A DNA stretch of 22,959 nucleotides, taken from Candidatus Heimdallarchaeota archaeon (GTDB lineage Archaea; Asgardarchaeota; Heimdallarchaeia; Hodarchaeales; Hodarchaeaceae). This document shows, one piece after another, positions 2 through 22,959 of this stretch. Made by a program: the position numbers and the translations under genes. The notes beneath the pieces were generated by a model. It had not been told where the DNA came from. It saw only the letters and a list, made by a program, of their open reading frames with translations, and did no database searches. The stretch is from positions 1 to 22,959 of the forward strand of contig DXJL01000102.1 in assembly GCA_019057635.1 (NCBI GenBank), given 5' to 3'. Within the stretch, counting starts at the first letter, position 1, and every line of letters begins with the position of its first letter.

Positions 2-193
2 TTTATTTCTTTTAGACAAGTGAGGAAAGCTGCAAACCGGGAAGATCTATGTAAATTATGCCCAGAGTACAAAAGCAATAGGATTTGTAATGGTTTACGA
101 TTAGAAGCAGAAGCGATGAGAAAATATTCAGATTATGCCTCAGATTTATTACACGCTGAACTGAAAGAAAAGTACAGTAGAAAACTCAACTGA
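2..193 (+). CDS. 3' end of an ORF entering from the left edge (partial, hypothetical; CxxC...C)
   Basis: Frame is open from position 2 to TGA at 191-193 (FISFRQVRKAANREDLCKLCPEYKSNRICNGLRLEAEAMRK...KYSRKLN*). It stops 13 nt before repeat copy 1. Confidence 0.5.
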   Translation, partial: FISFRQVRKAANREDLCKLCPEYKSNRICNGLRLEAEAMRKYSDYASDLLHAELKEKYSRKLN

Positions 194-206
194 AGCACTT
201 TTTCAC

Positions 207-304
207 GACTCCTTACGCTATAACTTCTAAATGTTTAGAAGGAAACGAGAGGACTGACCATTTCCACACTATCCTAATGATAGTAGCCCGTGTGCGATTA
301 GTGG
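207..304 (-). repeat. 23S-3'-end/trailer repeat, copy 1 (trailer plus extreme 3' end of 23S)
   Basis: GACTCCTTACGCTAT...AAACGAGAGGACTGACCATTTCCACA...TAGCCCGTGTGCGATTAGTGG aligns by eye to 21527-21613. Confidence 0.9.
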
Positions 305-648
305 AAGTGTGTAAGAAACACTAAACAATACTTTACCTGTGTTCGTAACGCGAGAGGGGTTGACATTCGGGATAAGAAAATGTGCAATCACCAAAGCTAA
401 ATATCCCCAAATTTAAGGCCTATCCAAAAGATCGAAGATCTCTATAGCAACTATATGCGTTAGAAAATCCTGTATGAAAACTTCAGTTCACGAAGGAGAA
501 TGTCAGCTCATGAGAAGACGATCAAGAGGGAGAAATGAATCTTTATAAATGGTGATCTGATGTTTATGACCAACTTTCCTCACCTGACTTTCAAAGGGAT
601 AAGTAATGCTAAAATTTCCATGAAAAAACCAGAGATGATGTAAAGAAG

Positions 649-2304
649 ATGGAACCTCTGAAAAATGCCACAAAATGGGGAGATCGTGAGTCTACTCATA
701 TTAAAGTAACCGACCCGCTTAAGAAATTCGTTTTTCAGCATTTAGGTATGGATCCAGATACCCTTTCCAAAAAATACCCGCAAAAGAAGACGTTAGATGC
801 TATCCTAGGTGATTCCCATCTTTCGGCTACCTTTCAATCTGAGTTAACACAACTAATCGATAAAACGCAAATAACTACTGATCCTTGGACTCGCATCACC
901 AACTCTTTAGGTCAAGGTTATGTGGAATCACTTCGCTCACGTTTTTCGGATATACCAGCCGTGGTTGAATTAGTAGTTTTTCCTCATAGTCATGAGGAGG
1001 TCGTTAAAGTTGTCCAATTAGCGAATAAACATAAAGTGCCCCTTTCAACTGTTGCTGGAGCTACATCTGTCACGCTGGGTATTGAACCTTCCCTCGGCAT
1101 CATCGCAGTAAATTTAACGCAGATGAATAAAATAATTGATGTGAATCCAGAAGCCCAATATATCACAGTTGAAAGCGGGATTTTGGGCCCTGACTTAGAA
1201 GCCCAGCTAAAAACCTATGGGTTGACTCTTGGGCATTTTCCTCAATCGTTTGAATATAGTACATTGGGGGGCTGGGCTGCCACACGGGGTGCAGGACAGA
1301 ATTCTACCCTTTACGGCAAAATTGAAGAAATGGTGATGGGGATGAAGTTTGTCACGGGTTTAGGAGAAACATTAATCACCAGAAAAGCCCCTGCACGAGC
1401 AACAGGACCCGATATCAATCATATACTGCTCGGTTCCGAAGGAACTTTTGGTATAATTACCGAAATGACCCTGCGTGTTTGGAAAACTCCTAGAAAGACA
1501 CGTTTGTCAGCTTTTTTCTTCAAAAGCTTTGAAGAAGGACTTTTGGCCTATAAGGAGATTCTACAGAACGGATATCGTCCTGCGGTGATGCGTATTTCAG
1601 ACAGCGAAGAGACCTATTACAATATTGTAGCTCAAGCGTTAATGCGTGACCCCCCCAAGATGCCTTTTTCATACCGAATGCTCTTGGGACTCTTAGAAAA
1701 AAAAGGCTATAAAGATGGAACACGGAGTATGGGTATTCTCTCGTTTGAAGGTGATCCCCCGCTTGTTGCCTTAACATTCAAACAGGCAAAAAAGTCTATT
1801 AACAGATATAAAGGAGTTTATATCGGATCAAGACCTGCAAAAAGCTGGTACAAAAGACGGTATGAACTTCCTTTTGTCCGTGATCCCCTCATTGATCATG
1901 GTATCCTCATTGACACATTTGAAACTAGTACCACTTGGGATAATATTATGAATTTATATCGTGTAACAAGAAAAATATTGAAACCCGAATGTCCGATTCT
2001 CTGGACGCATGGAAGCCATTTTTACCCAAATGGTGCCAATCTTTATTTTACACTAGTTGCACCACAGAAGGAGAAGGACGAATTCACCCAGTATTATCGT
2101 ATCAGGAAGAAGGTCTTAGATACATTCCAAGCTTATGGCGGAACTCTAAGTCATCATCATGGAATCGGCCGATCGTTTATCACTAATTATCTAGCTGAGA
2201 TCGGAGATGAAGGGTTAAAAACGCTTAGAAGTATTAAAAACACGCTTGATCCGAATAAGATCATGAATCCAGGTATTTTTGGATTAGACTCTAAATCTAG
2301 CTAG
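649..2304 (+). CDS. FAD-linked oxidase, alkyl-dihydroxyacetonephosphate synthase (AGPS)-like
   Basis: Family motifs GHFPQSFEYSTLGGWAATRGAGQ, GSEGTFGIITE, SHHHGIG and LDPNKIMNPG of the VAO/PCMH fold. The HHH motif is typical of the ADPS subgroup. Confidence 0.85.
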   Translation: MEPLKNATKWGDRESTHIKVTDPLKKFVFQHLGMDPDTLSKKYPQKKTLDAILGDSHLSATFQSELTQLIDKTQITTDPWTRITNSLGQGYVESLRSRFSDIPAVVELVVFPHSHEEVVKVVQLANKHKVPLSTVAGATSVTLGIEPSLGIIAVNLTQMNKIIDVNPEAQYITVESGILGPDLEAQLKTYGLTLGHFPQSFEYSTLGGWAATRGAGQNSTLYGKIEEMVMGMKFVTGLGETLITRKAPARATGPDINHILLGSEGTFGIITEMTLRVWKTPRKTRLSAFFFKSFEEGLLAYKEILQNGYRPAVMRISDSEETYYNIVAQALMRDPPKMPFSYRMLLGLLEKKGYKDGTRSMGILSFEGDPPLVALTFKQAKKSINRYKGVYIGSRPAKSWYKRRYELPFVRDPLIDHGILIDTFETSTTWDNIMNLYRVTRKILKPECPILWTHGSHFYPNGANLYFTLVAPQKEKDEFTQYYRIRKKVLDTFQAYGGTLSHHHGIGRSFITNYLAEIGDEGLKTLRSIKNTLDPNKIMNPGIFGLDSKSS

Positions 2305-2501
2305 AAAATACCCTTGCTCAAAATAGTGCTCGGAAATATTAGTTCACCCTTCCCATTTTTCTCTTCACCTCCCTATGACTCACAGACATTTCCAAGGACA
2401 GAAAATACCAAATTTTTTTCTTGAAATAGAAAAGAAAGAACCCGTGTGCAAGGAGTGGGAGTGAGTAAGAATTATGGTAAACGGATCCTTCTAAAGGAAT
2501 C

Positions 2502-3119
2502 TCATCTTAAACTAATTTTTGGGAACAACATAGGTACTTTCGCTCTATACTCTTCATAATCGGATCCAAATTCCCGAATTAATTCTTTTTCCTCCTTTCT
2601 TGCTATTATATAAAGATAAATAAACATAAGGGGTGTAAGGAGAAAGGAGTAAAGTGCTGATAGAAGAATAGATATTGCAAAATGGGCAAGTAGTGCTCCC
2701 ATGTATTGAGGGTGTCTAACTCGTCTATAAACTCCTGTACTAATAACTCTCTCTGGTCGATGGGTTTCGGCTACCTTAAAGGTCACCTCTTTAACACCCA
2801 TGAAAGAAAACCATAGTACTACAACAATAATGGGTAAGAAGATAAGAACATGGATGATTGGAGTATTTAAATTAACAACTGGGAGCATTAAGGATATCTC
2901 TGAGAAAAGAGGAATACTGAAACGTGGTTGAGGAGCAAACCATATTCCAAACATAAAAAGAAAATAACCCCAACCTGAAATGAGGCCAAGAATATCCCCA
3001 ATTCTTTTCCCCTTGGATTTCCCGAACTTCTTTTGTAACCTCTGATGTTCTAATGACCAAATATAGAGAGGAAAAATCATAGTTTCTCCTAATATGCTTA
3101 TCCAAAACATCAAACTCAT
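2502..3119 (-). CDS. Isoprenylcysteine carboxyl methyltransferase / PEMT-family membrane methyltransferase
   Basis: Several TM segments plus GVYRRVRHPQY and EEKELIREFGSDYEEYRAKVP. The ORF-track start at 3245 lies inside repeat copy 2, so ATG 3119 is the more likely start. Confidence 0.8.
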   Translation of the reverse strand: MSLMFWISILGETMIFPLYIWSLEHQRLQKKFGKSKGKRIGDILGLISGWGYFLFMFGIWFAPQPRFSIPLFSEISLMLPVVNLNTPIIHVLIFLPIIVVVLWFSFMGVKEVTFKVAETHRPERVISTGVYRRVRHPQYMGALLAHFAISILLSALYSFLLTPLMFIYLYIIARKEEKELIREFGSDYEEYRAKVPMLFPKISLR

Positions 3120-3204
3120 TTTAATCCAGATAAATATTGGTTCTAATATGAAAAATAAAGCTTCTCCATTTGTTACTTCTTTGGAAAAACTCACGAAAAA
3201 AGAG

Positions 3205-3339
3205 ACCACCAGACATAAGACCAGAAGACACAACAACACACTCATTTGGACTCCTTACGCTATAACTTCTAATTAATAAGAAGTAAACGAGAGGAGTGAC
3301 AATTTCCACATTTGTTCTTAGAAATAGTCCGTATGCGAT
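3205..3339 (-). repeat. 23S-3'-end/trailer repeat, copy 2
   Basis: ACCACCAGACATAAGACCAGAAG...CACTCATTTGGACTCCT...GTAAACGAGAGGAGTGACAATTTCCACATT...AATAGTCCGTATGCGAT matches 21475-21608. Confidence 0.92.
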
Positions 3340-3340
3340 T

Positions 3341-4192
3341 TCATACGAGGTGATCGGATTGTGAAAGATTATTTTGGCCCAAGAATTGTGATTTTTTAGT
3401 TGCCGCCTCTACAGCATCAATCAGAATTGAACGAAAACCACGAGCTTCCATTAATTGTAAAGCCGAAGCTGTAGTGCCTCCTGGAGACATGATAGCATCC
3501 CTTAGAATCCCTGGATGTACATTTTGTTCTAAAAGTAACTTAGCAGCACCCATAACGGTCTGTGCACTCAAAATAAGTGCTTCACGCCGGGGTAAACCTG
3601 CTAAAACACCTCCATCGGCTAATGCTTCGATAAACACAAATACATAAGCAGGACCTGTTCCAGAAAGACCTGTGACCGCATCTAGCAAGTATTCTGGGAA
3701 CTGAAAGACCTTTCCTAAGGAACCAAAGACGATTTCGACAATTTCTGAGTCTCGATTATCATTTCTGGTTCCAAGACTATAGCCAGCTGCCCCTTCTCCT
3801 ACTTGAAAAGGCATATTGGGCATTATCCTCACACAACGTGAATTTCCAGTTAATTCTTCGATAATCGATAAAGGTACACCAGCAGCGATTGATATTACTA
3901 AATGATCACTTGTGAAAGCAATTTGTAGTTTTTGGAGGGTTGTTAGAAATACTTGGGGTTTAACACAGATGAAAATAATGTCGCTTTGCTCAACTATTTG
4001 TTGATTATTTAAGGCTGCATTAATACCAGTTTCTTCAACTAGATCCATTAGCAGCTCGTTTATAATGTCATATGCAAGTATTTGATCAGGATTCACCAAT
4101 TTTTCTTTCAATAATCCTCTGATCAGGGCAGTTCCCATTATTCCTGTACCGATTACTCCTATGGATTCTGATAACCGTGGTTTATTACTCAT
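3341..4192 (-). CDS. proC: Pyrroline-5-carboxylate reductase
   Basis: Rossmann motif GVIGTGIMG, plus VKPQ, ISIAAG, RIMPN, DAVTGLSGTGPAY and SPGGTT. Confidence 0.95.
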   Translation of the reverse strand: MSNKPRLSESIGVIGTGIMGTALIRGLLKEKLVNPDQILAYDIINELLMDLVEETGINAALNNQQIVEQSDIIFICVKPQVFLTTLQKLQIAFTSDHLVISIAAGVPLSIIEELTGNSRCVRIMPNMPFQVGEGAAGYSLGTRNDNRDSEIVEIVFGSLGKVFQFPEYLLDAVTGLSGTGPAYVFVFIEALADGGVLAGLPRREALILSAQTVMGAAKLLLEQNVHPGILRDAIMSPGGTTASALQLMEARGFRSILIDAVEAATKKSQFLGQNNLSQSDHLV

Positions 4193-4321
4193 AGTCAGAA
4201 TTTCTCCTTTGGCACTCTATGTTAGGAATAAAGTAAATGATTTAATTTTATTCTCCAAAGTTTTTCTTTTTACTTTGATTTTCTAATTAAGAAATACAAT
4301 GGAAAAATGAAGTAAAACTTC

Positions 4322-4391
4322 GAAGTAAACATGAGAACTGAAAATATCCACATTCGGTAGTAAACAGTAGCACATGGGAGATGAGGAGTGG
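4322..4391 (-). repeat. 23S-3'-end/trailer repeat, copy 3 (highly degenerate)
   Basis: GAAGTAAACATGAGAACTGAAAATATCCACATT..GTAGTAAACAGTAGCACATGGGAGATGAG is collinear with the consensus AAGTAAACGAGAGGACT..CATTTCCACATT..TAGTAACAATAGCCCGTGTACGATGAG. Confidence 0.65.
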
Positions 4392-4557
4392 AATTTACTA
4401 CTACACTAATTTCTGATTGAAAAAAATCAATCTTCTTTAGCAATGAAGAATGAGATTATTCTTTTAAGCTTCTGCTATAGTAGGATCGTCACATCAGAAA
4501 ATAGTCTGCTTCTGAAAAACCACATATTAGACAGTATTCAAAAGAAGGAAAACCCTT

Positions 4558-4767
4558 ATGAAAAGTAAATTCAGGCGATTTAATGACCACTCACTGAACC
4601 GAATTGGATTATTGTTAATTATACTATTTTTATTAGCATCTTCTAGACCAATGCTGCAAGATAGTGGAGAAAAATTTCCAAATATTTATGCTATATCATC
4701 AAGAGTTGAGGTTATCGGAGTAGATACCAGTCCTCCGAGTATAGAATTAATTTCTCCAGAAAACTAA
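4558..4767 (+). pseudogene. Probable truncated secreted protein (signal peptide plus start of an Ig-like strand)
   Basis: Basic-hydrophobic N-terminus. It ends abruptly at DTSPPSIELISPEN, a D-x-x-PP-x-I-x-x-x-SP-x-N pattern that usually opens Ig-like repeats. Confidence 0.4.
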
Positions 4768-5188
4768 TGAGAAAGAAGTATCGAGAGCAAAGAAAAATTC
4801 ATCAGTCCCTAGAGATTTACTCTAATCCGCCTGAAAAACTATTAATTATTGATAAAGAACACAAAATACTAGTTACAATTTCAGCGAAGGGGTTATTAAC
4901 TATCGATAAGATTTATACTCAAATATAGACAATTATGGACTCTCAACCTCACGAGAAAAGAGGAAGTTAACGAAATTTACATGGGAGCTTATAAAGGGTC
5001 AGGTGGATTATAGGATGGAGTCACGCTTGAAATTCAACCACCGATTACCCCCTCATGCTGTGGTAGAAATCAACTCACGTGAACAATTAGGCGATCCGAA
5101 CTTAGACGACTTCTCGGAGAGGCATCCATCAACTCAGTGGTTCAATGAACCTATATTCACAGGCTTATGTCCTATATGGGTGTAAGTA

Positions 5189-5212
5189 TCCCGCCCGACT
5201 GTCCTGGCGGGG
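5189..5212. terminator. GC-rich hairpin just after the small ORF 5015-5185
   Basis: CCCGCC (5190-5195) pairs with GGCGGG (5206-5211) around a 10-nt loop. Function is not established. Confidence 0.3.
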
Positions 5213-5358
5213 AAACGGTTCACCTTCAATCATAATAAAGGTGACTAGATGGATTCATATTCGTTTCTTAGTATTCCTAAGAAAGGAATAAATGTCCATA
5301 AAGAAAGGAACGGTGGATACGCACATTTCCCCCACCTGAGTAATTTCAAGGGGTTTCT

Positions 5359-6894
5359 ATGAGCAAGCTAGACAATTTAAAGAGGTCTATCAAAACTATC
5401 TGCCAACAATTTCCCAAATTTATATTAAATTTTGATCTAGCAGAACGAGAGCTTATTAATGAATTTTTAACAGTTATTGGTCATTTTGAAGAAGCAGATA
5501 ATAAACGAGAGACACTATCCAAACGTTTTGATGAATATTCAGGTAGGGTTACAAAGAATGACCTCTATCTGAGAACTCCTTTTCTCTGGTTGACTGTATG
5601 CATTGCCGAAAATACGGTCTATCACCTCAGTATTTCACGATTTTATGCCACAGAATTTTATAAATTCTTATTATACCAGCTACGGAATCTTTATCCACTG
5701 ATAAAAAGAGGAGTGCAGCTTTCAGCATTCGATTATGAACAATTACAGATTAAATGTGATGAACCTAATTTTATATTATCATCTGATGAAATAGAAGTGT
5801 TAAAAACCACATATACCTCTCTTGAAAAATCAGGATTGGATTCTCTTGGTTCCAAAGCCATTAAAGATGAAATCAACAGAAATATGCTGATTCCACGAAA
5901 ATACAAGACTCATTCGGAATTATTACGGTTCTATACCCTCGTGGGAGGAAAATGGTGGCTCCAATTCCATCCTGCAGCGATTGGTTTGTCTCGTGTATTC
6001 TTTCATATTCATCTCTCAAAAAATATTGAACTGAACCAGATAATCGATTTTACTGATCCAGACAATATGGTACTTGGATTAAGTAACGTTCATCAAGTAG
6101 GAACCTCAAAAACCGAATATATCGGTACTTTACTCATCCCTACTCGTGATATAGATAACCTGTACACTTATTTTAAACTGTGCGAATATAAAAACAACTT
6201 AAAGATCAAAAAATTTGATTTACTTGATAAAATTCAGCGCAGTTCGGCATTCACTCTTTATAAACCTAATTTGGGATGGCAGAAATTACCTACAAAGGAA
6301 CGACACGCGATTGCTAGGATTTTCCATTCAGATAGTGTAGTAGAGGCACTCAATCATGATCTCTACTTTCAAAACCCACCATTGACCTCTAATCAGTGGT
6401 CATTTACTCAACATCCTCTTCCAGAGGAAATAATTGAATTAATCTGTAGAATTTCATTTCAGTTCTCTTTTTCTCACTTGCTCTATGATGATATCTTCAA
6501 AGAAAAGGATAAACATCATTCTTTAAGAGATATTGAACAGTTAAGAAAGTTGCATGATAAAAAAGTTTTGGAAATAGGATTTACTCCGTGGAGATTGATC
6601 TACAATCATTCTGTAAAGCGTTATTGTATTAAATTACCGAATGTCACCTTAGAGAAATTAAAATATCTGTTAAATATTCTTCCTTATGCAGAGACATATT
6701 TTTCCCAAGACCAGATCTATATTTGGACCCGATTGCGTGATGAAGATGTTGCTTGGATGAAAAATCAGTTTAAGGGGATCTTAGTCCCAGTGGTAAGAGT
6801 TCATTCTATATCTACACTTGATTTTGAGTGGTTTGATAGAGAAAATTTACAATGGATCAGTCCTAAAATCTTGCACAACCCACCCTCAGATTAG
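5359..6894 (+). CDS. Hypothetical cytoplasmic protein (511 aa)
   Basis: Long uninterrupted ORF with no motif I can assign confidently. Confidence 0.75.
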   Translation: MSKLDNLKRSIKTICQQFPKFILNFDLAERELINEFLTVIGHFEEADNKRETLSKRFDEYSGRVTKNDLYLRTPFLWLTVCIAENTVYHLSISRFYATEFYKFLLYQLRNLYPLIKRGVQLSAFDYEQLQIKCDEPNFILSSDEIEVLKTTYTSLEKSGLDSLGSKAIKDEINRNMLIPRKYKTHSELLRFYTLVGGKWWLQFHPAAIGLSRVFFHIHLSKNIELNQIIDFTDPDNMVLGLSNVHQVGTSKTEYIGTLLIPTRDIDNLYTYFKLCEYKNNLKIKKFDLLDKIQRSSAFTLYKPNLGWQKLPTKERHAIARIFHSDSVVEALNHDLYFQNPPLTSNQWSFTQHPLPEEIIELICRISFQFSFSHLLYDDIFKEKDKHHSLRDIEQLRKLHDKKVLEIGFTPWRLIYNHSVKRYCIKLPNVTLEKLKYLLNILPYAETYFSQDQIYIWTRLRDEDVAWMKNQFKGILVPVVRVHSISTLDFEWFDRENLQWISPKILHNPPSD

Positions 6895-7819
6895 AGGAAG
6901 AACCGTAATTAAGAAAAAAAAGAGGAGAAGGGAAATTGGGTTATTAGGAAGGTATTATGTCTTAAAGTCCGCTATCAGGACCATCTCTGGGGGGCATCAT
7001 GGGAGTTGACCTCAATATATGTCTTTGAAAGGACTTTTTAATCACACGAAAAAAGAAGAATTGGAGGAAGTGCGTTATCTTAAGAAATAGTTTACGTAGA
7101 TTATTTACCATCGTTTCCGTGATCATTTGGGGCCATCATTTGAGAACCTCAGACGTTGGTGACAAACCGTTCTTTTAGAAAACCTAGAAAAGATTCCCCG
7201 AGGAGGGGAGAAAGGGGAGAGAGAGCTGACTATGATTTAAATATTCAAAATCGATTTCAGCTCCTTTCAGAGGCTATCAATCGGGAACATTTTTCATTCT
7301 TTACTCAACTGGAAAAATGGGAAGACTATCTCCAAGAGAATGTGTCCTTTAATAAACGAATAGAATTGGCTCAATTAGAAAATCTAGTGTCGAAAATGCT
7401 CTATACATAAGCAGGAGAGATCCCACTTCAAACCCTCGCAGAATTGAATCAATATGAGGAATTTAAATCCTATTTGAACGATCGAAAATACTGCAGCCTG
7501 AAATAGAGAACATTTAATCAACAGAGGGAATAGATCCGAAAATGAAAATTGTGGAGTAGGACTGTATTCGCTTGAAAAGCACTTGGAAGTGTATTGACAG
7601 ACCCACTAGTCAAGATTAAATAAGCGTTTGAAGGAATGATTTTACCAGTTTTCGCATAGAAGGTGAAAGATAATGGGTAAAAGAATAGGTAGTAATCATA
7701 GACGAACGCAAAAAATCCAACGAATAGCCGTTATAAAGCCAACCGGAATAACAAAGCAAATCAACTGAATCCAACTCACAGGAAATCAAAACGATAAAAT
7801 GGAAAGGGAAGAGATTTAG

Positions 7820-8044
7820 ATGGTGAGGATTTTTAGGAATAAAAAAGGGGATAAACGGTTTGGAGACGCAGGAAAATCGGAACATCGACAGGTAGCAGAA
7901 AAAAAAATGGGAAGAAGGTTAAGACGGGGTGAAGTCGTCCATTATAAGAAGCGCAATAAAGGTGATAAACGACGAAAGAAGCTCAGTATGTTTCGCAGTA
8001 AAAAACAACATCCTCGAAGTAAAAAGCGCACAGGACGATGGTAG
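7820..8044 (+). pseudogene. Small HNH-endonuclease-like ORF with degenerate catalytic residues
   Basis: EHRQVAEKKMGRRLRRGEVVHYKKRNKGDKRRKKL matches the HNH_3 pattern HR-x-VAE-x-x-LGR-x-L-x-x-x-EVVHH-x-x-x-NK-x-DN-x-x-x-NL, but with H>Y and N>K changes. Confidence 0.6.
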
Positions 8045-8080
8045 AAGTAAAAAAAACTTTTATTAATAGAAAATTGAAAG

Positions 8081-8136
8081 ACCACCAGACAGAAGATCAG
8101 AAGTGGGTAAACGAGAGGACTGACCCTTTTCACATT
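8081..8136 (-). repeat. 23S-trailer repeat, copy 4 (internally deleted)
   Basis: ACCACCAGACAGAAGATCAGAAGT is joined almost directly to GTAAACGAGAGGACTGACCCTTTTCACATT. The middle ~50 nt of the consensus is missing. Confidence 0.85.
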
Positions 8137-8269
8137 ATTCTACGAAAATGTGACAGAAAAAATCAGGGAATCAGTCTGTTCCTACTCATTTACACTAATC
8201 TATCATTCAAGAAAAAATGAGGGAGAAAGAGGATGAGTTCCCCCTAATCCTCAATTGTCTTTCAATGAT

Positions 8270-8935
8270 TTAAGAGTCCTTCTTCCTGTGTTTTAACCCA
8301 ATGAGAATCAAGATTCCCAGATTTACAGGAAGAAGAAAACCTGGAAATCCTTTGGCTTTTGTTGTGGTTGTTGAAGTACTATCCAGGGGAATTACTTCTA
8401 TGGATTGTAAGTCAGGTAGAAATTCATTCAGGATTGGGTGAAAATCAACAGTGATTTGGTCGATAGTGCCAATCTCTAAGAGCTTCGCCAGAGCAATAAT
8501 ACTCAGACCGGGATCGTCCATATCTGGGCACTCAATGAATATCAAAGAAAGCTGGTTATAAACCGCTTGAAAATGCTCATCTTCACTTCCCGATTGCCAT
8601 AAGCCAACGCTGGCGTATGGGTCACCAAGCATCCAGAACAGTAAATTATTTCCAGTAGTAGTGCGGAAAAATAACAATGATCCAACATACTGATTAGTAT
8701 CACCTAACGGAAGCGTAAGTAAGATAAGAACCACCAATGATTCCGTTTCTTCTCTAGCTGGGGCAACAGAAAAATCGTAATCAAGAGTAATCCAGAAACT
8801 CGATCCGTTTTGAGTTACTTGCGAAATTGACACATCGGAATCGAGAAGAATCGCACCAGTAAGAGTAAGGAAGGAAAATGAACCAAATGATAGTAGGCCT
8901 AATAGAAATACTAATGACACATTCTTTGGTTTCAT
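8270..8935 (-). CDS. Secreted protein with Thr-rich linker and PGF-CTERM-like C-terminal anchor
   Basis: N-terminal signal peptide. The C-terminus STSTTTTKAKGFPGF-hydrophobic-KHRKK is a tripartite sorting signal. It starts 11 nt downstream of the hcp stop. Confidence 0.7.
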   Translation of the reverse strand: MKPKNVSLVFLLGLLSFGSFSFLTLTGAILLDSDVSISQVTQNGSSFWITLDYDFSVAPAREETESLVVLILLTLPLGDTNQYVGSLLFFRTTTGNNLLFWMLGDPYASVGLWQSGSEDEHFQAVYNQLSLIFIECPDMDDPGLSIIALAKLLEIGTIDQITVDFHPILNEFLPDLQSIEVIPLDSTSTTTTKAKGFPGFLLPVNLGILILIGLKHRKKDS

Positions 8936-8946
8936 ACTGCTTCACG

Positions 8947-9561
8947 TCAGCCAGATGCGTCGATCCAATCATCTTGAACTTCAATATTACCCTTGGCTTT
9001 TCCTTCCGCATCATATTCAGTGTAAGTCCATTTTATGGTTGCATAGGTGAAAGAAACGGTTTCTCTCGGGACTTCGTCGACACTTATGGTTCCATATCCT
9101 TGAACGGAAGTGATCTTTGCATTGATGAGCTCAATAGTATAAAAATTCTCCCCATTAGGTTCGAAATAAAATCGTAGGATGACCGAGGGAGCAATATCCC
9201 CTTTGACACATTTTTCATATAGTTTTGGAGTCGATTTGTCAATTAATTTCATTATTCGAAGGGGAGAATGCTGTTTACCAGTAAGATCTCCCGTAAGTCG
9301 GTCGTACGGATTACTGATACTATGGGAATAGCCAAGTACTGTTATTGAATTTTTACGATCATCTATTGTTGATTCACCATCGACACCCTCATAAAATAGA
9401 TTCATTGAGATTGAAGTGAAGCTAGGATATTGAGTTTCGAGTGTAGAGGCATTTACATGTTGACCAAAACCGATAATCAACATAGAGAGAGTGGTTATTC
9501 CAATAAGTACCCCTAGAAGAACAACCAAACGGGTATTATGTTTAATTTTCATTTTTATCAC
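8947..9561 (-). CDS. hcp: Hcp/TssD-family (type VI secretion tube) protein with N-terminal signal/TM segment
   Basis: GVDGES...ITVLGYSHSI...TGKQHSPLRIMKLIDKSTPKLY...G...FYTIELINAKITSV...ETVSFTYATIKWTY is the Hcp1 signature. The start may be ATG 9552. Confidence 0.88.
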   Translation of the reverse strand: MIKMKIKHNTRLVVLLGVLIGITTLSMLIIGFGQHVNASTLETQYPSFTSISMNLFYEGVDGESTIDDRKNSITVLGYSHSISNPYDRLTGDLTGKQHSPLRIMKLIDKSTPKLYEKCVKGDIAPSVILRFYFEPNGENFYTIELINAKITSVQGYGTISVDEVPRETVSFTYATIKWTYTEYDAEGKAKGNIEVQDDWIDASG

Positions 9562-9666
9562 TTTGTATTTTGATTAATATTATCTAGTGAACGAGCATCA
9601 TCAATGGATACTGGGATTCTTATGCTTATCGCTTTCTAATGGGTGTCCGTCTGACATGTTAAGTTT

Positions 9667-19211: not shown

Positions 19212-19613
19212 TTGGTGTCTAAGATGGGAATTAATTGGGATATGGAACGTGATTGGAAAGTATTAGCTCCTGTTTTTGCTATTCTTATAGCAGTGGTTAT
19301 TGCATTTCTACCAAATGTTGAAGACTTCATGGCTGTTGTTTTTCTCATTTGTACTGGATTAGTGGGAATTTATGGTGGAATAAAAGGAAAGGGTGTAAAA
19401 AAGAAAGATGTAAAATCAGATGATACATCCACACAGAACACTTTGAATATACCTGCTGGAATGGTTCGTTTACTTCTTGGAGTAATCTGTATAGTGATAG
19501 GCCTTATTGTAGCCTCTCTTGAACGTCCTGAAAGTGTCACAATGCTGTTCTTTGGGTTATCTGGTGAGTTATTAGGGATTAGTCTCCCAGCAGTTCAAAA
19601 CTATTACAAGTAA
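19212..19613 (+). CDS. Small hypothetical membrane protein (4 TM, two similar hairpins)
   Basis: Two pairs of hydrophobic helices separated by a Lys-rich loop. Confidence 0.7.
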   Translation: MVSKMGINWDMERDWKVLAPVFAILIAVVIAFLPNVEDFMAVVFLICTGLVGIYGGIKGKGVKKKDVKSDDTSTQNTLNIPAGMVRLLLGVICIVIGLIVASLERPESVTMLFFGLSGELLGISLPAVQNYYK

Positions 19614-19995
19614 CCTCGTTCACTAGTTTATAATCTACAAGTGAGAGTAGTTGAGTAACTGACATATTGCTTATTGAATAATTACAGGTAATGCTGCCGA
19701 TCTGGCAGAAATGACAGTCGATTCTCCATTTCCAATAAGTGAGCTAAAAAATGTAGGTCATATTGTACTAGTTCTCTTACCTATCCAATGATGAACGGAA
19801 AAGTACCAAAAAAGATCCTCACTAGTGATACTTCTAGCAACTTAAATATTCAAAAAAAGTCGAAAGGCAACGAAAAGAAGAAGAGGAGGAAATGAAAAAG
19901 AACACTGAAAGTAGTCCCTTGGGGAAAAAATCTTCCAGAAAAAGGAAAATTATCTGAAAGAAGTTAGGTCTCCCATCCAGAAAAAAGAGAAGTGA

Positions 19996-20289
19996 GAAGA
20001 AGGGGACGATCAAAGAAAAAAGAGAATACTAGTAGAAGGAATAGCGGGAATATTTTTCATAATCTATGGGATTCATGAAGCATTAAGCAACTGGATATTA
20101 ATTGGGGTTTCGGAACTCACATTTGAAGGAGTAAACCCAATAATATTTTTTTATGGTGTAGTCGTAATTATAGGTTCTGTGTTCCTCATTATAGCTGCAT
20201 ATGAGACAGAAAACCAGCAAATCTTCATAGCTTCTACAGGAGGATTCTTAGTAGTTTATCTACTCATTTTAATAGTGGCCTTTCTATAA
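19996..20289 (+). pseudogene. Startless open frame encoding a 3-TM membrane protein
   Basis: Open frame of 97 codons after TGA 19993-95 (EEGDDQRKKRILVEGIAGIFFIIYG...LLILIVAFL*) with no ATG/GTG/TTG near its 5' end. Confidence 0.45.
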
Positions 20290-20455
20290 GAAGAATACAA
20301 AGAATTATACTCCAAGCAGTGGATCGAATTATGCGCTGGACCCTGAGGGTAAACCCGAGGAAACGCACGAAAAATAATCACTGTAGCCTTTCTAGAAGGA
20401 GAAAAAAATAATTATTGTCAATGAAATATATGAAGAGGTTGGGATAGAACAATAG

Positions 20456-21136
20456 TTGGTGAAAAAAACAAAAATGAGTCCAAGAGTATCGACACGTCGA
20501 ATAAAACCTCTCTCAGGAACGAAAATACGGGCAAAAATCGTTCTGATTGGTGATGGAGGAGTGGGAAAAACAGCCTTTCGACGTACATGGTTAGGAGAAG
20601 GTTTTAAAACAGAGTATCTTATGACTATTGGTGCTGATTTTGCAATTCAAGAGGTTACGTACTATCATTCCCCTACAAAAGCCACTTATGAGATAAAATT
20701 TAAAGTGTGGGATTTAGCTGGCCAACCGAGATTTAAAGCGGTACGTGATCTATATTACCGTGGTGCTGTTGGAGCATTATGCTTTTTTGATGTGACTAAT
20801 CAGGAATCGTATAGGAATCTCGTTGAGTGGATTCAAACTTACTGGTCTCGAAACGGAATTGGTAAGAGTCCCTTACTTATTATCGGTTCCAAATGTGATC
20901 TACGAGATAATCCTGAGTTTCCAAATCAAGTCTCTACACATTATGGCAAAGAATATGCAGTAGAATTGTCCAAACTACTTAAAGATAAACTAGGTTTTTC
21001 TGTTCATTACCTAGAAACCTCAGCGAAAGACAGAATTAATGTTGATGAAGCATTCAAACTCTTAGCGAAGGAAATCGTCTCCTATTCCACTTTTCAAGAA
21101 AGCAAAGAAAGAAAAAATACACCAGAAAAATATTGA
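20456..21136 (+). CDS. Rab-like small GTPase (Ras superfamily)
   Basis: G1 GDGGVGKT, G2 TIGADF, G3 WDLAGQ, YYRGA, G4 variant SKCD and G5 ETSAK. No C-terminal Cys prenylation motif. The start is probably ATG 20474. Confidence 0.92.
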   Translation: MVKKTKMSPRVSTRRIKPLSGTKIRAKIVLIGDGGVGKTAFRRTWLGEGFKTEYLMTIGADFAIQEVTYYHSPTKATYEIKFKVWDLAGQPRFKAVRDLYYRGAVGALCFFDVTNQESYRNLVEWIQTYWSRNGIGKSPLLIIGSKCDLRDNPEFPNQVSTHYGKEYAVELSKLLKDKLGFSVHYLETSAKDRINVDEAFKLLAKEIVSYSTFQESKERKNTPEKY

Positions 21137-21474
21137 GAACTACTCCCTATATTTACGTATTTCCTTATCCTAAGCGTCCCCGGCAGCCAGTGCAGAGGCG
21201 CATCTCCTCCCGAAAGTGCTTCCTCCGGAAGAAGAACCCGAAGATACCCCGCTGAAGGAAAGTATTCCCTCCAAAAAACTTGAACGAGAAGAGTTGTAAG
21301 AGGAGAGGAAACATATGTCTCGAAAGGAGGAGGAGTTCTTACAACTGTAATCGCAGTAAATAAAGAGTGAAGATGGTGGTCATTTCTAAAAACAATAAAA
21401 TCAGAATATAAGAAATCTACATCAGAGAAAGTATCTCAAATATAAGAATAAACTGAGAAACAAAAGAAGAAAAA

Positions 21475-21909
21475 ACCACCAGACATAAGACCAGAAGCGT
21501 TTAAACAAACAACACACACTCATTTGGACTCCTGAAGGCTTTTGCTGCTAAGTAAACGAGAGGACTAACCATTTCCACATTGTTTAGTAACAATAGCCCG
21601 TGTACGATGAGTGGGAGCCAGCTGAACATGTTGGTCGAAACCTCCACGCGTACACTGCTCCTCTATCAACGGGATGTTCTATCCCAGCACTCGTTTACCA
21701 TCTCATGGTTATCGTCGCCAATCCCCATGGCTTTGCGCTGATGGCAAAATGGATTCGTCTTTTCGAGGTCCGTTTCGTGCTTAGATGCATTCAGCACTTA
21801 TCGGTTAGCGCGTGGCTGCCAGGCAGTACCCTTCTGGATAACCCGTACACTAGAGGCGCCCATACCCTGTTCCTCTCGTACTGAGGGCACGTTCCTCTCA
21901 CGAATCCAA
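21475..21909 (-). repeat. 23S-3'-end/trailer repeat, copy 11 (longest, best preserved)
   Basis: Contains every segment seen in the other copies: domain VI, the trailer and a T-rich end (minus strand ...TCTGGTGGTTTTTTCTTC). Confidence 0.95.
21592..21909 (-). rRNA. rrl: Partial 23S rRNA: domain VI (H94-H101) fragment, not a full gene
   Basis: SRL AGTACGAGAGGAAC at 21869-21882 (minus strand). H94 strands TGGATTCGT and ACGAATCCA pair perfectly. H97 motif GCTGAATGCATCTAAGC. Sequence beyond 21910 is AT-rich and not rRNA. Confidence 0.92.
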
Positions 21910-22220
21910 AAATACTTAGTACTCTTTTAATAACTAACCTAGTAATTTAAACAGGTAAATCAACTGAATTTCATTGAAGAGATTATTATATCGTCCAATC
22001 ATAATTCAAAGAAATATATTACTAAATTACATTTAAAAGAATGATTTAAATTAGATAATAACATTTCTAAATTATTGAAGACCTAGTTTAATATCATTTT
22101 TAGTATTTAAAATCAAAATACGGTTAGAATTGACTAATATGAATAATATAAACAAGCTAGGTAATGCACAGATAGCGAAAGATATTTATAAGTTTACATT
22201 TCTTGTAAACTTGGATAAGA

Positions 22221-22959
22221 ATGATAAGTCAATCTACATATAATACAAGTCAACTATTCAATAATGTAGCATTAGAGATACTATTTGATTTATTTCATTC
22301 AGAAAAAGCTTTAACAATATATGAGCTTAATAAGAGATACTCTTATCGACAATATCAGTATATGTTAAAAAAACTTGAATCTAATCTAATAATCAAATCA
22401 TATAAAGACAAAAAGAAGAAATATTACAAGTTAAATCATTTTTATAATAAACTGGTGAGATCCGTGTTAGAAATAAAAAGGTGGGAGGAATCAAATGACT
22501 ATAACAGTTATCCACGATCCCTGTCATATGATAAAAGGTTTCTTCGGATCATATCTGCTTTGAAAGGTATAGATGGATGGGTATTTACTGATACTACGGC
22601 ATTACTATTATGGGTACCTTTTCTTGATCTTCAATTACCATATTTTACTGTATGTGTTAGAAATCGATATTTAAAAAGCAAACTGGAAGAAAATTTTCCA
22701 CGTTCAGTTCTTAGAGTCCAGCTTCAGGCAAAGTTCTTTTCAAAGGAGTCAAATATCACAGCTGTAAAAGGCATACCATTATTAAAGCCAGAATTATTAG
22801 TTTTCAGACTTCTACGCAATGAAAATTCAAGAGTGAGCCTTTCTTCTCTATTTCTACTGCCCTTTTTGTCACCAAAAAAGGTACTAAGATACCTAGAAAA
22901 CAATAAAAAAGTATTTCCAACTATAATGTACTTTTTATTCGCATTAGAGAAATTTTTAA
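22221..22959 (+). CDS. Partial ORF (>245 aa) running off the right edge; winged-HTH-like N-terminus
   Basis: Manual translation from ATG 22221 (MISQSTYNTSQLFNNVALEILFDLFHSEKALTIYELNKRY...LKKLESNLIIKSYKDKKKKYYKLN...) shows no stop before the window end. It is absent from the ORF track. Confidence 0.7.
   Translation, partial: MISQSTYNTSQLFNNVALEILFDLFHSEKALTIYELNKRYSYRQYQYMLKKLESNLIIKSYKDKKKKYYKLNHFYNKLVRSVLEIKRWEESNDYNSYPRSLSYDKRFLRIISALKGIDGWVFTDTTALLLWVPFLDLQLPYFTVCVRNRYLKSKLEENFPRSVLRVQLQAKFFSKESNITAVKGIPLLKPELLVFRLLRNENSRVSLSSLFLLPFLSPKKVLRYLENNKKVFPTIMYFLFALEKFL

Follow-up and report, generated by a model that had tools for sequence, protein, structure and literature searches.

How copies of one end of a ribosomal RNA (rRNA) gene came to stand between unrelated protein genes is the question raised by contig DXJL01000102.1 of a Candidatus Heimdallarchaeota archaeon, whose full 22,959 bp are referred to here as the window. 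It is the entire contig C70 of a 3.19-Mb metagenome-assembled genome (MAG; 214 contigs, 91.6% complete, 36% G+C), and its repeat units, all in the same orientation, carry the 3′ end of the 23S rRNA gene and the trailer behind it. The locus is best explained as the far end, ~23 kb in length, of a hypervariable array of gene cassettes situated directly downstream of the 23S gene in a Hodarchaeales-type Asgard archaeon. In the following, G000 denotes the window's own MAG, other G-numbers the genomes of relatives, and C-numbers contigs.

The units were collected with a profile obtained by iterated nhmmer starting from the longest copy. Within the window, this profile detected 11 minus-strand units and none on the plus strand; searched against the whole genome (3.19 Mb, 214 contigs), it gave 11 matches, all on C70 and in that same orientation. 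A remnant at ~11047 was overlooked by the profile; it occupies 11063-11045 and retains the terminal motif alone, CTTCTGGTCTTATGTCTca, bringing the total to 12. The preliminary description of this DNA had listed 11 copies, co-oriented and intergenic. All of them proved real, ten by the profile and the one at ~11047 by its terminal motif, and a weak unit absent from that list was found at 2489-2395. All 12 units lie on the minus strand, either between open reading frames (ORFs) or overlapping ORF ends by no more than ~50 nt. From the proximal to the distal end, they are as follows:

21456-21917, minus strand: long unit with 23S domain VI fragment, trailer and perfect terminal motif (21497-21479)
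18906-19059, minus strand: short unit (profile 295-445) with the last ~25 nt of 23S, trailer and terminal motif
16394-16625, minus strand: mid-length unit (profile 206-457), its 23S part with an internal replacement
13334-13426, minus strand: short unit, 5′-truncated (profile 345-435)
12036-12132, minus strand: short unit without hairpin A, like the native G008 trailer (profile 299-413)
11044-11063, minus strand: terminal-motif remnant between a toxin–antitoxin (TA) pair and a 325-aa gene; a contig of metagenome X3 joins 18918 to 11047
9834-10270, minus strand: long unit with 23S domain VI fragment, trailer and degenerate terminal motif
8077-8148, minus strand: fragmentary unit (profile matches 8148-8107 and 8103-8077) with the CAGTCCTCTCGT block and terminal motif, the intervening stretch deleted
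4317-4389, minus strand: short unit, 3′-truncated (profile 302-373)
3197-3339, minus strand: short unit with perfect terminal motif (3227-3209), overlapping the start of the ORF at 2502-3245
2395-2489, minus strand: weak, decayed unit (profile 274-356, E 5.5e-9)
175-311, minus strand: most distal unit (profile 296-424)

Motif searches gave the same picture. The block CAGTCCTCTCGT was matched nine times at two or fewer mismatches, always on the minus strand, where 1.16 matches were expected and none of 100 shuffles reached nine; the terminal motif at three or fewer mismatches was matched five times, again only on the minus strand, against 0.01 expected from a shuffled control. The copies are thus clustered rather than dispersed, as had been proposed, on a single contig in a single orientation. 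A dispersed repeat resembling a miniature inverted-repeat transposable element or a short interspersed nuclear element does not fit, as the copies are confined to C70 in one orientation and are likewise co-oriented on each sequence in the relatives.

The origin of the units was established by comparison with rRNA models and genes. Two of them contain 23S domain VI according to the Rfam model LSU_rRNA_archaea, namely 9958-10264 (model 2721-2973, 162 bits) and 21602-21909 (model 2723-2973, 199 bits), and these fragments end at position 2973 of a model 2987 positions long. When the window was scanned whole with Rfam, at the gathering threshold or by E-value, just one of these near-identical fragments appeared; 21602-21909 surfaced only in a 900-nt slice. 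The short units retain the last ~25 nt of 23S and the trailer. The reading of the longest copies as domain VI plus trailer, with the shorter ones keeping mostly the trailer, therefore held.

Alignment with the true 23S gene of the same-genus genome G008 showed that the long units all start within ~15 nt of one point, ...TATCTATTGGACGTGTTGG, which lies ~30 nt 5′ of the sarcin-ricin motif AGUACGAGAGGAAC and which corresponds roughly to E. coli position 2620. Short units begin ~25 nt ahead of the 23S 3′ end. Both classes continue through a ~130-nt trailer and end at CTTCTGGTCTTATGTCTGG(TGGTC), followed by a T-rich run, giving duplicates of 150-460 nt. In G008, the trailer blocks GCGGACCTATCGT...GCTTAAGGAGTC pair with GATCCTTAAGC...ATAGGACCGC of the 23S 5′ leader, with a cofolding energy of -59.4 kcal/mol compared with -46.3 +/- 4.1 for 200 shuffles (lowest shuffle, -58.9), indicating that the trailer is the 3′ strand of the pre-23S processing stem. 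Moreover, the terminal motif is also present behind the true 23S genes of G008 and G005; in other families of the class, no such motif was seen after the true 23S gene. The alignment to the 23S 3′ end, the stem pairing and the occurrence of the motif behind true genes thus identify the unit as a native 3′ module of the rRNA operon and not a foreign repeat.

Within the unit, the best-conserved portion is a ~150-nt core composed of fixed blocks and two variable palindromic stretches. These two AT-rich stretches of the trailer differ among units yet stay palindromic. The hairpin-B stretches fold weakly, a stem of any kind being present in 17 of 40, RNAalifold returned no consensus structure for 47 units (0 pairs), and a repeat search found no inverted pairs of 40 nt or more in the window. 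Trailers are 67-92% alike between units. Long units of five genomes resemble one another at 86-96% in their 23S parts, with no grouping according to genome. The 23S fragments also carry a ~56-nt insertion (10086-10031 in one long unit of the window) between LSU model positions 2882 and 2883, presumably the helix-98/ES39 region, where Asgard rRNAs have been reported to carry expansions.

The relation of the array to a functional gene was seen in G008. Contig C8 of this genome ends in a true 23S 3′ part (C8:53937-54756; model 2545-2987, cut by the contig end), downstream of which lie, in the same orientation, a short unit, a long fragment at 7 kb, another at 26 kb, and further short units, so that the long units are spaced 7 and 19 kb apart. 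The two long fragments match the true gene at 96% and 93% identity. In the one closer to the gene, the sarcin-ricin loop is mutated and 7 nt are deleted, indicating that the fragments are dead copies. A minus-strand 23S gene had been predicted to the right of the window; such a gene does stand at the proximal end of the array in G008, while for the window itself the right end of C70 is open, no partner contig was found among the G000 contigs, and a search across the MAG found no assembled 16S or 23S gene. Furthermore, a contig from X3, an independent cold-seep metagenome, that is at least 92% like the window's long unit runs past 21909 into ...GACAGGTCGGACTTTATCTATTGGACGTG, which is genuine upstream 23S sequence.

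Several further observations concern the rRNA genes of the relatives. The true 23S gene of G008 (locus C8:37001-54756, ~17300-17700, minus strand) contains a ~400-nt non-rRNA insertion between ...GGGAACGTGA and GCTGGGTTTAGACCGTCGTGAGAC, flanked by the inverted repeat GACTTAGC...GCTAAGTC; it resembles an intron or a large expansion segment and lies just upstream of the long-unit breakpoint. On G008 C9, a 229-aa ORF matching LAGLIDADG_3 (2452-3141, minus strand) lies upstream of the 16S 3′ end at ~1700; it probably encodes the homing endonuclease of an intron in this operon's 16S gene, its placement inside 16S being deduced from that 3′ end. No conserved gene is common to the DNA downstream of the true 23S genes of G008 and G005, and the DNA downstream of the G005 gene showed no similarity to G000 or to the other loci. 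A full-length 23S gene on G001 C57 (307-3242) was set aside, as it was unlike the G008 and G005 genes by eye and may reflect contamination of the bin.

At its other end, the window passes into unit-free DNA. The first 141 bases of C70 are identical to the reverse complement of the start of C10 (1-141), a 41.7-kb contig, and the distal flank of the array therefore continues on C10, which carries no units beyond the most distal one. The contiguity of the window was supported by Logan contigs of run X1, which may be its source sample; these span 14012-20135 and 4729-10054 and cross units, and other runs contain parts.

To place the array among relatives, 40 genomes were searched at the DNA level. 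Multi-copy matches were obtained in the same-genus genomes G002, G004, G013, G018, G020 and G008, and several further genomes of the genus gave one to three matches each; other families of the class gave single matches, those examined being true 23S genes. In total, the profile identified 107 units in the window and 25 loci of relatives, with a single unit orientation on each of the 25 unit-carrying sequences (25/25) and a median spacing of 1995 nt (range 83-6686). The array on G004 C196 spans at least 34 kb and reaches the contig end at its 23S side. On the same contig (locus 86001-106000), a giant ORF of more than 3000 aa (locus positions 10803-20000, minus strand, open at the locus end) occupies an ~11-kb unit-free stretch of the array. 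Fragments matching model positions 2721-2973 were found in the window, G002, G008 and G011, and a class-wide Rfam search that scored two candidates per genome found such isolated fragments in the window's genus only. Beyond the class, a motif scan of 185,579 species (one genome each) gave, among the matches listed, multi-hit loci only on Candidatus Hodarchaeota/Heimdallarchaeota contigs, belonging to four differently named MAGs, and bacterial matches that were scattered, single and at chance level. A scan of metagenome contigs gave single matches; nine picked loci had no LSU match, and no terminal motif was present among the matches listed. In IMG/VR, no viral contig with a full unit was found, the scan giving five single matches and no more than a ~30-nt profile match (E 0.0066).

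The edges of the units recur. Among 106 untruncated 5′ starts, 15 fall at profile 1-10 and 37 at 291-310, with the others scattered, and 54 of 105 3′ ends fall at 441-450. The cargo beyond these edges is largely unrelated: 11 distinct upstream flanks adjoin 14 long units, 34 adjoin 37 short units, and 48 distinct downstream flanks adjoin 55 unit ends. With no homology upstream of a unit's 5′ edge, homologous recombination between units is unable to join that edge to new cargo; that the same edges recur next to unrelated genes therefore speaks for repeated events at defined points. Alternatively, all units may have begun as long ones, of which the ~150-nt core alone was retained.

Turnover between relatives was evident from a comparison of G000 with G002. 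The two genomes have four blocks in common at 92-96% identity (528-4354, 7663-9935, 10151-12040 and 16435-19055), which in G002 are spread over three contigs in other contexts and in a different order. Between the S9-peptidase and Hcp cassettes, for example, G000 carries the beta-helix, Fic and 325-aa/TA genes, whereas in G002 this place is taken by a Ras gene together with an unrelated ORF. In G004, G018 and G020, the 325-aa gene does not share a cassette with the TA pair. The G000/G002 breakpoints lie inside or at the edges of units. The Hcp breakpoint follows hairpin B; those proximal to S9 and distal to the FAD oxidase coincide with the first bases of the terminal motif; and the one distal to S9 falls at ~profile 275-290. 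Across these junctions, the terminal motif remains with the cargo distal to it. The expectation that relatives would differ in cargo at the repeats was thus confirmed in both order and content. In addition, the X3 contig that joins 18918 to 11047 places the S9 cargo directly after the 325-aa cassette via the terminal motif alone; this joint, with 61 nt on its short side and 11 nt shared, was the sole contig joint used as evidence. Other contig joints at units were not used, as their sides were mostly 24-46 nt within units and mapping ambiguity was possible. A motif-like sequence was also noticed by eye ahead of the PEMT homologue in G020 C3.

The genes between the units of the window, again from the proximal end, are as follows:

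22221-22958, plus strand: open-ended ORF; a 345-aa counterpart at a relative's locus (L041) resembles helix-turn-helix (HTH)/AbiEi/DUF6577-type proteins in an Atlas feature search
20456-21136, plus strand: Ras-family small GTPase (PF00071, E 1.2e-39)
19212-19613, plus strand: 133-aa ORF with no family match
16702-18672, plus strand: S9 prolyl-oligopeptidase-type hydrolase; the same cassette, 94% identical, stands in another context in G002
13463-16348, minus strand: 961-aa beta-helix/NosD-repeat protein (family search)
12381-13268, plus strand: Fic/DOC-domain protein (family search)
11084-12061, plus strand: 325-aa ORF without family match, forming a cassette of its own in other genomes
10288-10972, minus strand: PIN-domain toxin (10288-10692) and small antitoxin-like ORF (10730-10972)
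8270-9561, minus strand: Hcp-like protein (8947-9561; PF05638, E 8e-29) and a 221-aa ORF without family match
5359-6894, plus strand: 511-aa ORF with no match in Pfam, NCBIfam or PHROGs
3341-4192, minus strand: proC, pyrroline-5-carboxylate reductase, flanked by units
2502-3245, minus strand: PEMT/ICMT-like membrane methyltransferase
649-2304, plus strand: FAD-linked oxidase

The Hcp-like gene encodes a type VI secretion family protein in an archaeal cassette, and its pair with the 221-aa ORF recurs in G002, G004 and G020. The 325-aa and 511-aa ORFs, together with five further unit-adjacent ORFs in relatives, had no informative match in Pfam, NCBIfam or PHROGs. The open-ended ORF at 22221-22958 was considered as an integrase and rejected, its counterpart being HTH/AbiEi-like. 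Capture of proC from an ancestral locus was also considered; no ancestral site could be defined, as the neighbours of proC differ in G012, G008 and G019.

For the relatives, the cargo was analysed at 20 array loci, which supplied 150 complete ORFs with a minimum length of 105 aa. Eukaryote-like signalling proteins are enriched in the arrays: the 150 ORFs include 23 matches to Ras, 17 to Roc, six to Arf and six to Gtr1/RagA, the GTPase families overlapping on the same ORFs, besides six PIN proteins, five matches to methyltransferase families, and three LRR, three TPR and two Kelch proteins. A Ras-like blastp cluster had 33 members among 512 ORFs. Of the Ras genes of each genome, three of 40 in G002 and four of 45 in G020 lie on array contigs, which make up ~1-1.5% of each genome; G000 has 41 Ras-family genes at E <= 1e-10, a number in keeping with the placement of its organism among the Hodarchaeota/Heimdallarchaeota that the motif scan suggests. 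Cargo lies on both strands, 97 of the 179 array ORFs of at least 105 aa being in unit orientation and 82 opposite, with seven versus eight in the window. The G+C content of the cargo (37.0%) is close to that of the genome (36.2%).

A recombinase or reverse transcriptase gene, which the preliminary description had proposed to seek in the flanks, was found on none of the array contigs searched. A six-frame search for PF00589 in G000, G008, G002, G020 and G004 gave 17 matches, none on an array contig; it included G008 C8 and C9 (rRNA operon), and several arrays stop at contig ends, so that genes beyond them are unseen. G000 and G004 have just one strong PF00589 match apiece, which belongs to a set of similar ~300-320-aa matches present once per genome in all five; these may represent the chromosomal Xer-type recombinase. 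The families covered, in six frames over five genomes each, were Phage_integrase, Resolvase, LAGLIDADG_3, RVT_1, Y1_Tnp, Cas1 and TnpB, and not the DDE transposase families. Reverse transcriptase (PF00078) gave three matches in the five genomes, all in G002 (C40, C13 and C2), none an array contig; PF14528 matches lie on non-array contigs, mostly within large ORFs, with one on G008 C9; and Cas1 (PF01867) gave no match in the five genomes, on which ground a casposon was rejected. TnpB (PF07282) occurred once in the arrays, as cargo. An R2-like retroelement or group II intron was likewise rejected, there being no reverse transcriptase gene in or beside the insertions, as was an archaeal rRNA intron with a homing endonuclease, there being no LAGLIDADG ORF within array DNA.

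The observations establish the anatomy of the array, the rRNA origin of its units, its place at the true 23S gene in a relative, the recurrent boundaries and the turnover between relatives; from them we infer how the insertions were made, that the enzyme acts in trans, and in which direction the array grows. We think it somewhat probable, a little better than an even chance, that the array arose by serial site-specific insertion at the 23S 3′ end with duplication of the target, mediated by a recombinase in trans and followed by shuffling among the repeats. Each cassette, of one to three genes, has at its boundary a non-functional copy of the module that natively closes the rRNA operon: first the 23S 3′ end, next the processing-stem 3′ strand, and lastly the terminal motif with a T-rich run behind it. 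The array would grow by repeated insertion of DNA into this module, each incoming piece restoring the 23S 3′ end and pushing the old one downstream, as with elements that target tRNA genes. Insertion ~30 nt 5′ of the sarcin-ricin loop would yield long units; insertion near the 23S 3′ end or at the terminal motif of the trailer may yield short units, which might alternatively result from decay to the ~150-nt core. A recombinase is absent from the cassettes, so that the enzyme would have to work in trans, like that of integrons. Units would then recombine and undergo gene conversion with one another, by which cassettes would be shuffled, deleted and exchanged between related strains. Each acquisition would leave one 23S 3′-end duplicate. 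A broader proposal, possible but with less than an even chance in our view, is that this is a host-resident capture system of the Hodarchaeales, integron-like but of independent origin, in which the end of the 23S operon would serve as the primary attachment site, the ~150-nt units as cassette sites and a recombinase of a not-yet-recognised family as the enzyme, and which would acquire, multiply and shuffle Ras-superfamily GTPases, LRR, Kelch and TPR proteins, and TA and defence modules.

A number of findings weigh against serial insertion. The distal cassettes hold ordinary genes, among them proC, the only copy found in G000, whose ~80%-identical counterparts in four other genomes stand in unit-free contexts that all differ, and the homologues of the Hcp, PEMT and FAD-oxidase genes in G020 C3 lie in a stretch without a profile match. 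PF00589, PF00239, PF14528, PF00078, PF01797 and PF01867 gave no match on array contigs in five genomes per family, and no recombinase family was common to two or more of the 150 array ORFs. G005 has a true 23S gene without a unit in the ~10 kb downstream, and arrays are therefore not universal in the genus. The 23S gene of the window's own genome is missing from the assembly. Among short units, the position of the 5′ edge varies by ~10-15 nt, and its peak may partly reflect local-alignment ends near a variable helix. Finally, the G000/G002 crossovers are not fixed (~profile 275-290, 365-380 and 415), a scatter that homologous recombination explains at least as well as a single fixed site does. 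The earlier proposal of a serial gene-capture platform is accordingly upheld in the clustering and co-orientation of the copies, their position at the G008 23S gene and the turnover at units, and weakened by the heterogeneous crossovers and the lack of a recombinase on the array contigs.

Homologous recombination alone would require one or a few ancient duplications of the 23S 3′ end, with cassettes then gained, lost and exchanged by recombination or gene conversion via the repeats and the 23S gene, with DNA of related cells and with no dedicated enzyme. This account, which we regard as unlikely, agrees with the arrays lacking a recombinase, with G000/G002 junctions at varied places within units, mostly in conserved blocks, with the 86-96% likeness of the long-unit 23S parts irrespective of genome, as exchange or conversion predicts, and with a cargo G+C content near that of the genome. 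It is at odds, however, with the 11 unrelated upstream flanks at the same edge of 14 long units and the 34 for 37 short ones; trailers only 67-92% alike would be a poor substrate, and the junction through the ~18-nt motif (11045-11063; X3 contig) offers very little homology. Another possibility, to which we give a rather small chance, is a graveyard of integrative plasmids or viruses whose attP resembled the 23S 3′ end and whose integrase and backbone have since been deleted, leaving accessory genes, as in the gene capture at tRNA sites of Sulfolobus. Long units often have addiction-type genes as neighbours, which would suit such a history: an AbiEi domain beside a G008 long fragment, a blastp-related ORF beside a G018 long unit, and in the window the AbiEi-like ORF 22221-22958 and the PIN gene beside 10270, both near long units. 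The G008 long-unit spacings of 7 and 19 kb, which are of element size, would suit it too. Yet no integrase remnant appeared in six-frame searches of five whole genomes, no full-unit viral contig in the IMG/VR scan, most intervals are 0.5-3 kb with one or two unrelated genes, and the turnover is recent, the common cassettes being 92-96% identical.

The units might also be a functional intergenic module, such as a terminator, an insulator or a small-RNA gene derived from the rRNA trailer, duplicated locally among resident genes without being a capture site. The conservation of the ~150-nt core, with its fixed blocks and two variable palindromic stretches, the placement of units beside ordinary genes such as proC and the T-rich run after the terminal motif are consistent with such a role. 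We nevertheless consider it improbable, given that gene content and order differ strongly between close relatives, that long units carry decaying and plainly useless rRNA sequence, that RNAalifold found no consensus in 47 units, with only 17 of 40 hairpin-B stretches folding, and weakly, and that cargo occupies both strands (97 vs. 82 ORFs), so that one strand-specific signal cannot serve all of it. Least credible, with hardly any probability, is an artefact of assembly or binning, in which contigs were made chimeric by repeats or joined to foreign rRNA fragments. The MAG is indeed fragmented, contigs break at units and the true 23S gene is missing; the same architecture, however, recurs in at least seven genomes and multi-hit loci lie on contigs of four differently named MAGs, the contigs of X1, possibly the source sample, cross units over 14012-20135 and 4729-10054, and units 67-92% alike are distinct enough for unique assembly. 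Serial site-specific insertion at the 23S 3′ end thus remains the preferred reading, and it bears on more than one question. If the platform is active, it would offer a concrete and testable route by which eukaryote-like gene families of Asgard archaea expand and move, and a new recombination system may lie behind it. The arrays also explain the poor assembly of rRNA operons and their flanks in these MAGs.

The preliminary description had called the system undescribed, and literature searches on Asgard and archaeal 23S integration, integrons, GTPase cassettes and mobile elements of rRNA operons likewise yielded no description of such an array, although supplements could hold loci. Site-specific insertion into conserved large-subunit rRNA genes is known from eukaryotic ribosomal DNA elements (the R1 and R2 retrotransposons and Pokey) and from archaeal 23S LAGLIDADG introns, and we take the long-unit breakpoint, in domain V/VI, to lie near the classical homing sites. 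Unlike those elements, the arrays contain no reverse transcriptase or LAGLIDADG gene, the inserted DNA brings a replacement 3′ end rather than being spliced out or inactivating the copy, and unrelated host-type genes accumulate. The terms 23S and rRNA are absent from the excerpted text of PMC11529989, and Hodarchaeales are called the closest relatives of eukaryotes in the excerpt of a preprint (10.1101/2024.07.04.601786). Closer in phylogeny are the mobile elements of PMC8813620, the excerpted text of which states that aloposons use tRNA sites and carry giant genes and that HeimM2, which encodes a homologue of homing endonucleases, sits between a 16S and a tRNA gene. The present array resembles the mobile elements HeimM2/HeimV2 in directly adjoining an rRNA gene in a Heimdall-group Asgard archaeon and in a cargo that includes leucine-rich-repeat proteins; in the same excerpt, however, no array of rRNA-end duplicates is described for HeimM2 or the aloposons.

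The likeness to integrons is broader. Integrons of the attC type have been reported in Archaea and are enriched in Asgard MAGs according to the excerpted text of PMC9668308, in the main text of which the term rRNA does not occur. As in integrons, long arrays of unrelated one- or two-gene cassettes lie between co-oriented repeats with conserved ends and variable middles, the cassettes lack a recombinase, TA modules occur in the cargo, content varies strongly between relatives, and units are more alike within a lineage. Unlike in integrons, no intI-type gene lies next to the array (PF00589, five genomes; several arrays end at contig ends), the units are rRNA-derived, aligning over their full length to the 23S 3′ end and trailer without an attC-type inverted-repeat fold, the cargo lies on both strands and not in one orientation (97 vs. 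82), and the anchor is an rRNA gene instead of attI. The comparison with TA- and Fic-rich integron arrays drawn earlier therefore serves as an analogy only, because the features that define an integron are lacking.

The nearest parallel is provided by tandem islands at tRNA and tmRNA genes, in which integrase-mediated integration duplicates the 3′ part of the target, as in archaeal tRNA gene capture and tycheposons. In the present arrays, as in those islands, the repeats copy the 3′ portion of a structural RNA gene and keep its orientation, which G008 confirms, and the duplicated segment extends from a fixed internal point to past the 3′ end, so that the gene can be restored. Such islands have the intact target gene at one end; in G008 the true 23S 3′ part holds that place, and in the window's genome, with no rRNA gene assembled and the right contig end open, the corresponding place would lie outside the assembly. 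The present arrays differ in that the target is the 23S gene with its processing trailer and the duplicates are 150-460 nt long, and in that dozens of small cassettes without an integrase or its remnant are delimited by two or three classes of boundary. Elements that insert into structural RNA genes at their 3′ end and duplicate the target, and cassette arrays free of recombinases, are thus both known in principle; new with respect to the literature searched are the 23S anchor, the rRNA-derived units of 150-460 nt, and the dozens of small integrase-free cassettes per genome, extending over at least 34 kb on one contig.

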